The notes under the pieces were generated by a model that was not told where the DNA came from, did no database searches, and saw nothing but the letters and a program-made list of their open reading frames with translations. DNA of 64,000 nt from a virus (taxonomy: Duplodnaviria > Caudoviricetes): positions 13,109-77,108 of the IMG/VR virus record IMGVR_UViG_3300025961_000012; one strand, 5' to 3'. The position numbers and the translations under genes were made by a program. This document shows positions 18,553 through 64,000 of this stretch, piece after piece (the stretch's first letter is position 1; every line of letters starts with the position of its first letter).

Positions 18553-19452
18553 GTGAATTATTACAACGAGAACGATCCCAGGGCCGCTGCGTGGCTTCGG
18601 GAATTGATTCGCGCCGGGGAGATTTCAATGGGGGAAGTGGACGAGCGCAGTATAGTCGAAGTCAAAACTCATGAACTCAAAGGATATGCCCAATGCCATT
18701 GGTTTGCCGGAATTGGCGGTTGGTCTCTTGCCCTTCGACTTGCCAGATGGCCCGACGACAAGCCCGTCTGGACAGCCTCGCTCCCATGCCAACCATTCAG
18801 CACAGCCGGGGATCAGCGAGCGGAAGCGGACGAGCGCCACCTCTGGCCAGTGTTCGCCGAGCTTGTTCGGCACGGGCAGCCTTAAATCGCGTTTGGAGAG
18901 CAGGTTGCGAGCAAACTTGGACGTGAATGGCTCGCTGGAGTTCGAGATGATTTGGAAGGAATGGGGTATGAAGTCGGGGCTTCCGATCTGTGCGCTGCGA
19001 GCGTCGGAGCGCCGCACAGACGACAACGGCTCTACTGGGTGGCCCACTCCATCCGCGATCGACTCAGTTCGCGGGGTGGAGTCCAAGGAGGCGCGAAAGG
19101 CACGGGGATCACACACGGGCACGACGTTGAACGATGCGGCAGCAATGGCGCCCTGGCCGACGTGCAGCGCACGGGATTGGAAGGACACGCCGGGAATGGC
19201 GACAACGGGCACGAACCCGGACGGAACGGAGCGAACTCGCCTGGATCAATTGCCGCGAGTCGCAACCCTTGGGATTCCTACGACCTGCTCCCCTGCATCG
19301 ACGGAAAAGCGCGGCGCGTTGAACCCGGAACATTCCCGCTGGCTCATGGGGTACCCGGCCGCGTGGGGCTCCTGCGGGGATACGGGAATAGCATCGTGCC
19401 GCAAATCGCGGAAGTCTTCATCCGTTCCTGTGTCGAAGCCATAGGCATCTGA
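18553..19452 (+). pseudogene. dcm: C5-cytosine DNA methyltransferase (alpha chain) interrupted by an in-frame TAA at 18883-18885
   Basis: FAGIGG (motif I), LPCQPFS (IV), then QP*IAFGEQV (VI) in the same frame, APHRRQRLYWVA (VIII), LRGYGNSIVPQ (X). Confidence 0.85.
18671..19444 (+). CDS. Nested alternative-frame MTase subunit (EcoHK31I beta-like; TRD/motif IX)
   Basis: Intact 257-codon +1 frame with repeated WPTP/WPTC..RDWK boxes and LNPEHSRWLMGYP (motif IX-like, absent from the alpha frame); start may be later. Confidence 0.75.
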   Translation: MNSKDMPNAIGLPELAVGLLPFDLPDGPTTSPSGQPRSHANHSAQPGISERKRTSATSGQCSPSLFGTGSLKSRLESRLRANLDVNGSLEFEMIWKEWGMKSGLPICALRASERRTDDNGSTGWPTPSAIDSVRGVESKEARKARGSHTGTTLNDAAAMAPWPTCSARDWKDTPGMATTGTNPDGTERTRLDQLPRVATLGIPTTCSPASTEKRGALNPEHSRWLMGYPAAWGSCGDTGIASCRKSRKSSSVPVSKP

Positions 19453-63016: not shown

Positions 63017-63081
63017 AGCGTTCCGACATCCTGCGCAATTGTCAAGCGGCGAGTTGACAACCCGGCGAAATCGTGGACACT
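63017..63081. promoter_or_regulatory. Divergent promoter pair
   Basis: Leftward CCGCTTGACAA (63049-63039)-AACGCT (63022-63017), ATG 9 nt later; rightward TTGACA (63054-63059)-N16-GACACT, ATG at 63088 6 nt later. Confidence 0.75.
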
Positions 63082-63087
63082 CGCGCC

Positions 63088-63276
63088 ATGAGCCGACGAC
63101 ACAAAGTAAATGTTCAGGTCACGAAAGAGGGCAAGGATTACGAAAAGGATCTGAGCGCGAAGAAACTGACGGACCAGGAGATCCGCGACCATCTCCCGCA
63201 GGTCTGGAAGGACCGCAGCGAAGCCGGCAAACGCGCGGTGTCCGTTCCGATCCCAGGGACGCCGCACTACACGTAG
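63088..63276 (+). CDS. Hypothetical basic protein (62 aa)
   Basis: Leaderless-type start after the rightward promoter. Confidence 0.7.
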   Translation: MSRRHKVNVQVTKEGKDYEKDLSAKKLTDQEIRDHLPQVWKDRSEAGKRAVSVPIPGTPHYT

Positions 63277-63278
63277 GA

Positions 63279-63659
63279 ATGGCGAACTTCTTCAAAGACT
63301 GGACTCCGGAAAAAGTCCGACAGCACAATGAGCGCGTTAAAACTCGTCATCCAGGGAATCGGCAGACCGTCCTCTTTCAAGAACTCGAAGATGATTTGCC
63401 AGCCGAAAGGCTACAGCCGTCCAATTCTGATTACCGACCCGAAGATCCGAAAGTGGATGGACAAGGCAACCCGTCTTATCGAATCGCAATTACGGTCCTG
63501 GTTAGCGACTACAGGGACCTCGACCTCGACGGATGCGGAAGTACGATCCAAGATTGTATCATCGCTGCCACTGGAAGACTCTTACGTTTGGGTCGAGTCG
63601 ATCTCCGTAAACTGGCGAAGAGTCAGGAAAGGCGAAGAGGGCGCCGAGATCGTCATTGA
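63279..63659 (+). CDS. RusA-like resolvase, chain carrying the central catalytic DLD...D segment
   Basis: YRIAITVLVSDYRDLDLDGCGSTIQDCI aligns without gaps to E. coli RusA [28 protein letters not shown] (recalled sequence). Confidence 0.65.
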   Translation: MANFFKDWTPEKVRQHNERVKTRHPGNRQTVLFQELEDDLPAERLQPSNSDYRPEDPKVDGQGNPSYRIAITVLVSDYRDLDLDGCGSTIQDCIIAATGRLLRLGRVDLRKLAKSQERRRGRRDRH

Positions 63660-63681
63660 ACGGATAGCGCCGCAGCCTTAG
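63328..63681 (+). CDS. RusA-like resolvase, chain carrying the N-terminal strand/helix and the C-terminal DD-strand region
   Basis: LKLVIQGIGRPSSFKN...KIRKWMDKATRLI resembles the RusA N-terminus; LEDSYVWV...RRVRKGEEGAEIVIER resembles LDDAQVV...MPVTKGGRLELTITE. Confidence 0.65.
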   Translation: MSALKLVIQGIGRPSSFKNSKMICQPKGYSRPILITDPKIRKWMDKATRLIESQLRSWLATTGTSTSTDAEVRSKIVSSLPLEDSYVWVESISVNWRRVRKGEEGAEIVIERIAPQP

Positions 63682-63751
63682 GTTGCGCGACATGAACGCC
63701 CATCCAGGTTTTCGCTCGGCGGCCCGCTCGATCGCCAGACGAGAAGGTTAC

Positions 63752-64000
63752 TCACTGAGCCGCGCCAACAGGATTCTCGCCGCCGGCGCCCGCGGTGCCA
63801 GCAAGGCTGCCGTTCGGCGCAATCCCAGGCTGTTGCGGGTCCGCCGCGGCCGGCGTTAGGGTGAACTCGACGGGGAACTTGTATTGCTCAGATTTCCCTT
63901 CCCACGCGGTGTAGGTGCCGACGCCGCGGGCGACGAGCGCCTCGACGGTCGTTGTGCCGAACCATTTCGCCCAAGTGAGAACCTTCTTGGCCCAGAACCC
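63752..64000 (-). CDS. 3' end of a truncated leftward gene, possibly an ssDNA-binding-type protein
   Basis: Open frame from the window edge: ...TYTAWEGKSEQYKFPVEF then a flexible G/A/P tail; stop at 63752-63754. Confidence 0.45.
   Translation of the reverse strand, partial: GFWAKKVLTWAKWFGTTTVEALVARGVGTYTAWEGKSEQYKFPVEFTLTPAAADPQQPGIAPNGSLAGTAGAGGENPVGAAQ

Follow-up and report, generated by a model that had tools for sequence, protein, structure and literature searches.

The window studied here is a stretch of 64,000 nt that closes a phage contig of 77 kb. Although the contig (G000) is listed as linear, its final bases recur at its start, which suggests a circular or terminally redundant genome. 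Near the end of the window, two open reading frames, B and A, lie almost on top of each other. A preliminary description of this DNA had read them as the parts of a single RusA Holliday-junction resolvase, each frame open from its own ATG, and the coordinates that it gave for the two are those found here. It had also called their overlap complete; the overlap is indeed extensive, but at 332 nt it takes in 94% of A and 87% of B. The features of the locus, in order of their first base, are as follows.

63073–63276, plus strand: upstream ORF of 67 aa, ending 2 nt before the ATG of B; no family match
63279–63659, plus strand: ORF B, 126 aa, open from ATG to stop, in the −1 frame relative to A; a short N-terminal helix, a disordered linker over the N-terminal half of A, then RusA strand beta3, the Arg loop and helix alpha2, and a basic helical tail
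63279–63327, plus strand: N-terminus of B, upstream of the ATG of A, with a conserved W-T-x-E/Q motif
63328–63681, plus strand: ORF A, 117 aa, open from ATG to stop; RusA strand beta1, the motif P-S-x-F-K-N-x-K, a beta hairpin, helix alpha1, a filler, an E-D acidic pair and the C-terminal strands
63367–63390, plus strand: motif of A with K18, N19 and K21, 95–98% conserved
63439–63513, plus strand: helix alpha1 of A (residues 38–62); its conserved end, I-E-S-Q-L, and the start of beta3 in B draw on the same codons
63477–63560, plus strand: catalytic strand-loop-helix of B (residues 67–94), over the Thr/Ser-rich filler of A; L81 = R69 of RusA, D82 (63522–63524) = D70, D84 (63528–63530) = D72, G85 = N73, S88 = K76, D92 = D80
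63508–63566, plus strand: filler of A, stop-free, with the lowest pLDDT (55–69) and a short helix at its end
63561–63659, plus strand: tail of B, in which the helix runs on beyond the D80 equivalent; Ala and Arg are conserved where it overlies the P-x-D-D of A
63574–63579, plus strand: E83-D84 of A, equivalent to D90-D91 of RusA; D84 is invariant

The 67-aa ORF probably belongs to the same small operon as B and A; no sigma-70 promoter passed in our scan. A is followed by a 55-aa Arg/Ala-rich ORF (63692–63859) without a PHROG match that is kept in a near relative (L001). That relative also has a 199-aa ORF inserted directly before B (L001:788–1387), absent from the window, which we take to resemble an HNH homing endonuclease.

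Neither A nor B alone matches any model in Pfam, PHROG or NCBIfam, and the curated cut-off of PF05866 is reached by neither, nor by any of 150 A members or 43 B members. Identity with RusA was found for the two proteins by separate routes. A profile built from 43 B proteins had a sole PDB match at E ≤ 10, E. coli RusA (1q8r; E = 0.067), covering the catalytic segment, and in a profile–profile comparison B aligned with RusA over 30 ungapped columns (probability 95.8, with a small RusA set partly chosen by a similar motif). The ungapped alignment to E. coli RusA given in the preliminary description thus holds against the real protein, and the register taken from 1q8r (D82, D84, S88 and D92 of B for D70, D72, K76 and D80; D84 of A for D91) bears out the three aspartates said to be kept and the exchange of K76 for Ser. 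That residue account overlooked two further changes, R69 to Leu and N73 to Gly. The profile of A was uninformative against PDB sequences, a feature search of the ESM Atlas returned nothing above 0.76, no A relative was found among annotated GenBank phages, and the genome contains no second RusA match.

For A, recognition came through structure. The AlphaFold model of A alone (pLDDT 81), compared with 48,161 PDB chains, places 1q8r first (Z = 4.9, a middling score taken alone; rmsd 3.5; 82 residues aligned over residues 1–114), and the extent of the match is approximately RusA minus the missing catalytic segment. The same model reaches a TM of 0.62 to a RusA cluster in the Atlas, and its top matches in BFVD are RusA; Foldseek against PDB, with RusA at rank 3 (E = 1.4), was uninformative. 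A is thus predicted to fold like RusA without its catalytic strand and helix. B modelled alone consists of helices, a disordered linker and an unpaired beta3 strand. The RusA fold, a four-stranded sheet with two helices, would accordingly be present in the pair, with the scaffold coming from A by predicted structure and the remaining strand and helix from B by sequence; the earlier proposal that the RusA parts are divided between the frames is in this way supported from each side. A joint prediction of A and B lent assembly weak support, scoring 0.50 against 0.01 for the best control, a score that may reflect memory of solved RusA, with contact agreement between runs of at least 85% and partner pLDDT of at least 58. 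Of 80 solved pairs, 58 attained the mark used for such predictions, as did 2 of 110 mismatched ones, but at scores no higher than 0.60 it was attained by only 7 of the solved pairs and by both of those mismatches.

The catalytic residues of RusA are D70, D72, K76 and D90/D91, with K76 termed critical and R69 binding DNA; D80 is absent from the list (PMC1636454). Across A and B together the acidic set D70, D72 and D90/D91 is present, the D70 equivalent in 68 of 68 loci and the D72 equivalent in 65 of 68, both in B, and the D91 equivalent invariantly in A. K76 has been lost family-wide (Ser, Ala, Thr, Asn or Glu in 68/68 loci), the N73 position is Gly in all 68, and R69, Arg in 66 of the 68 loci, is lost from the window and its near relatives, the window alone among the 68 having Leu. 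These losses, together with a locus strand opposite to that of this genome's replication and recombination genes, are what one would expect if two chains formed a RusA fold that is no classical Holliday-junction resolvase, especially in this lineage, and that acts by binding only, with another specificity or with weak activity. We consider such a product unlikely, though the least improbable of the alternatives discussed here, given how strictly the acidic residues are kept. K18, N19 and K21 of A are near-invariant, and the lysines of this K-N-x-K motif may replace K76; moreover, the relatives are located in replication modules, with DnaB (26 loci), a gp2.5-like SSB (19), an exonuclease (19) and replication-initiator genes as neighbours.

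The family is large. A has 22 near homologues and at least 462 clusters at 50% identity, and in an alignment of 171 A proteins the Thr-rich filler is the consensus over the catalytic position, an in-frame catalytic motif being absent among the sequences listed. DNA of more than 60 loci was fetched by C-terminal A patterns only, and in the full-length loci the −1 frame over the filler encodes a strand followed by S-D-x-R-x-R-D-x-D-G and T-x-x-D. Each of the 45 non-redundant relatives, whose A proteins are on average 43% and at the least 27% identical, retains both frames, with the conserved residues of B kept at 91–100%. Reversing the ascertainment, we picked 56 loci by a DNA pattern for the B motif alone, and A was open across the motif in every one: 52 had the layout of the window, four had one junction between the frames (see below) and none was single-frame. 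The metagenome search suggested earlier has therefore returned homologues with both frames open, and the contiguous single-frame relatives that would have spoken against a split number 0 of 56. Searches with read-through chimeras likewise found no full-length single-frame close relative, and in place of the single ~120-aa chain of the RusA homodimer, every locus examined has two frames. In a collection of 15 billion proteins, the A sequence of this genome is present and its B sequence absent. For two relatives the contig comes from a MAG, labelled Methylomirabilota in one case and Binatia in the other, and two A-family proteins (P0142, P0115) continue into an SSB or HTH_3 domain, through either a true fusion or a lost stop. 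An apparent fusion of A with B (P0213) was rejected; it is false, the result of two indels in homopolymers of a polished long-read assembly (L071:2501–2863).

That case, and that of SPP1, in which a sequence error made one RusA look like two genes, 44 and 45 (PMC3485210), show why sequencing or assembly indels, or else a decayed pseudogene, have to be considered. The conservation of the layout refutes this reading, to which we attach next to no probability: over 100 loci share the arrangement, at identities as low as 27%, as the earlier argument from open frames against chance indels had anticipated. Four contigs, drawn from three sources, carry the exact A protein. In two near relatives, each from a separate assembly, the 332-nt overlap is free of indels and has only 3 and 5 mismatches, compared with 9 and 6 mismatches in the 48-nt stretch belonging to B only and flanks that are 83–93% identical. 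Codon changes in the B-only N-terminus relative to these two are synonymous in 5 of 7 and 4 of 6 cases, and a third-position test on this segment over a wider set gave p = 0.10.

Whether the overlapping frames are held open by selection was assessed with 1000 synonymous shuffles, the expected counts treating related loci as independent. Under the N-terminal half of A, frame B has 7 stops where ~87 are expected, and 42 of 45 loci are open against ~5 expected; the tail of B has 0 against ~49, remaining open with conserved residues for at least 13 codons past the junction; and the filler of A has 0 against 76–82. None of the shuffles approached the observed depletion. In 3 of the 45 loci a stop far upstream closes B, which could then begin only at an internal ATG 23–36 codons before D70; a subclade (L023, L046, L048, L081, L098) has such an upstream-closed B, for which an internal ATG start gives a minimal B of ~60–75 aa. 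Start codons are kept as well, with ATG at the start of A in 54 of 62 loci and at that of B in 45 of 62, against 4 of 62 in the third frame and ~28% in the control. Shine-Dalgarno sequences are weakly enriched at the two starts, and those at the starts in the window are poor, while in some loci the two starts lie 4–13 nt apart behind one strong Shine-Dalgarno sequence. In six loci (L020, L040, L089, L092, L117, L122) the GTG of B and the ATG of A are 4 nt apart (GTGAATG), and there one ribosome-binding site may serve both frames. Both frames are real, conserved and under selection.

How the two frames give rise to protein is the question on which the preliminary description had left two models standing, a two-chain enzyme and a double (−1 then +1) ribosomal frameshift yielding one RusA chain from the start of A. 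The second is attractive in that the motifs run along the DNA in the order of RusA, an in-silico read-through matches PHROG 34 RusA weakly (E = 0.076), and a CCCAAA(A/G) heptamer occurs in 9 of 45 loci, albeit before helix alpha1. Frameshifting of this kind would, however, leave the unused portions of each frame free to gain stops, and predicts no selection on B upstream, on the tail of B or on the filler of A; all three flanking portions are stop-depleted. In the junction zone a canonical slippery heptamer was found in one of the 45 loci and none in the window, and RNA structure at the junctions is nothing unusual (z = −0.04). At both junctions, where one frame leaves a position degenerate the other fixes it, and the end of alpha1 in A and the start of beta3 in B use the same codons, so that the two elements cannot sit in one chain. 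In addition, D80 and D91 lie too close together for a single chain (25 or 22 nt apart, against 33 nt in RusA), and a frameshift-like chimera aligns to RusA worse than one that retains the overlap. Stop depletion, start codons, shared junction codons and the lack of a conserved slippery site thus favour two chains over a double frameshift, which we regard as very improbable, and over sequencing error.

Six further loci (L067:2501–2932, L069:633–989, L093, L102, L121, L133) divide RusA between two frames at a single junction. Here B runs in frame from the catalytic helix through the D-D pair to the C-terminal strands, with the 33-nt spacing kept, and by itself it matches PHROG 34 (E = 3e-9), scoring 16.5 bits against PF05866 (cut-off 22.8). 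In the DNA, the N-terminal motif and helix of A occupy the +1 frame and give way to a tail that is not conserved; although functionless-looking, this tail is also open over the catalytic segment, which hints that the filler of A has a structural role. These one-junction relatives have exactly the product that a single +1 recoding event after alpha2 would give in the two-junction form, namely a B-A protein, with A made separately for its N-terminal half, and B does start first. Yet B stays open and conserved for at least 13 codons past the junction (the 0 stops against ~49 noted above), the spacing is 8–11 nt short, and neither a common shift motif nor an unusual RNA fold was found, and we therefore give this route little credence, if slightly more than the double frameshift.

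The spacing suggests how the two-junction form is likely to have arisen. From a single-frame RusA, a first split would have left the N-terminal half in A and the catalytic and C-terminal parts in B, as in the one-junction loci; a net deletion of 8 nt after alpha2 would then have shifted the C-terminus into frame A, which was open already. Such a deletion would be survivable without a new signal only if the fragments already complemented each other in trans. In a tree with the single-frame RusAs sampled, the one- and two-junction forms join on one strongly supported branch against these, and the two-junction form lies on one side of a branch with support 95/86, in a tree of few columns, junction columns included, and with a long outgroup branch. 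The tree, though weak, is compatible with a single origin of the two-junction form.

The explanation that we favour, and hold to be fairly probable, is that A and B are separate chains that assemble into one RusA-like enzyme. One stretch of mRNA would be initiated twice, at 63279 for B and at 63328 for A, to give two polypeptides. A would contribute the scaffold (beta1, the Lys-Asn motif, the hairpin, helix alpha1, the D91 equivalent and the C-terminal strands), into which B would insert the absent beta3 and helix alpha2 bearing D70 and D72. The complex, probably A2B2 because RusA is a dimer, would be a Mg-dependent nuclease of branched DNA that serves the phage in recombination and replication. 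An active site shared between chains is plausible, since in canonical RusA residue 70 and the D91 of the partner subunit are already in contact (PMC1636454). The layout, the selection on both frames, the likeness of each part to RusA and the start codons can be read from the data; that both frames are translated, assemble and are active is inferred. The pair most likely works as RusA does. Formally it falls outside PF05866, from which it departs in profile score, in K76 and in the single chain.

Compared with E. coli RusA (1q8r, 2h8c, 2h8e; PF05866; PHROG 34), the two-frame family shares the fold elements and their order, the D70, D72 and D90/D91 equivalents, the Arg-rich loop and, in relatives, a replication and recombination neighbourhood. 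It differs in having two overlapping ORFs rather than one and in the absence of K76 and N73 (and, in the window, of R69), and neither ORF of the window reaches a Pfam, PHROG or NCBIfam RusA model. The SPP1 RusA-like resolvase G44P (PMC3485210) was also a phage RusA first seen as two ORFs; its split was a sequencing error, whereas the one described here is conserved. A precedent in design is the C5 methyltransferase M.EcoHK31I, in which the beta chain is encoded in another frame within alpha, the two are active only on association, and the nested chain can do without its N-terminal extension (PMC2836561). As there, complementary motifs lie in overlapping frames, both of which are kept open in the RusA-like case. 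The enzyme class is different, however, and the nested chain of M.EcoHK31I carries the accessory motif IX, whereas the RusA-like ORFs, of similar size, split between them the acidic residues of the active site itself. The same genome encodes a two-frame C5 methyltransferase resembling M.EcoHK31I (18553–19452), whose alpha frame is interrupted by a stop (18883–18885) and whose overlapping 257-aa ORF (18671–19444) matches PHROGs 1008 and 31772. The preliminary description knew of no two-frame RusA, and our literature search, with most subscription journals outside its coverage, found no paper on one; the one-junction two-frame loci are unpublished and were found in the present analysis.

In its broadest form the proposal is that a widespread phage lineage has an active junction nuclease with its active site split between chains in interleaved frames and a lysine from the other frame in place of K76, and that the one-junction relatives record the transfer of the C-terminal third by a single indel without loss of function; on this we are evenly balanced. 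The finding would extend the design of one enzyme from two frames from methyltransferases to a nuclease with divided catalytic residues, and it accounts for many phage 'hypothetical proteins', a large family for which gene callers annotate a single frame. The natural series of single-frame, one-junction and two-junction forms offers a test of how overlapping genes originate and of frameshift rescue by complementation in trans, and a resolvase that is split by nature could find use as a nuclease that assembles conditionally.
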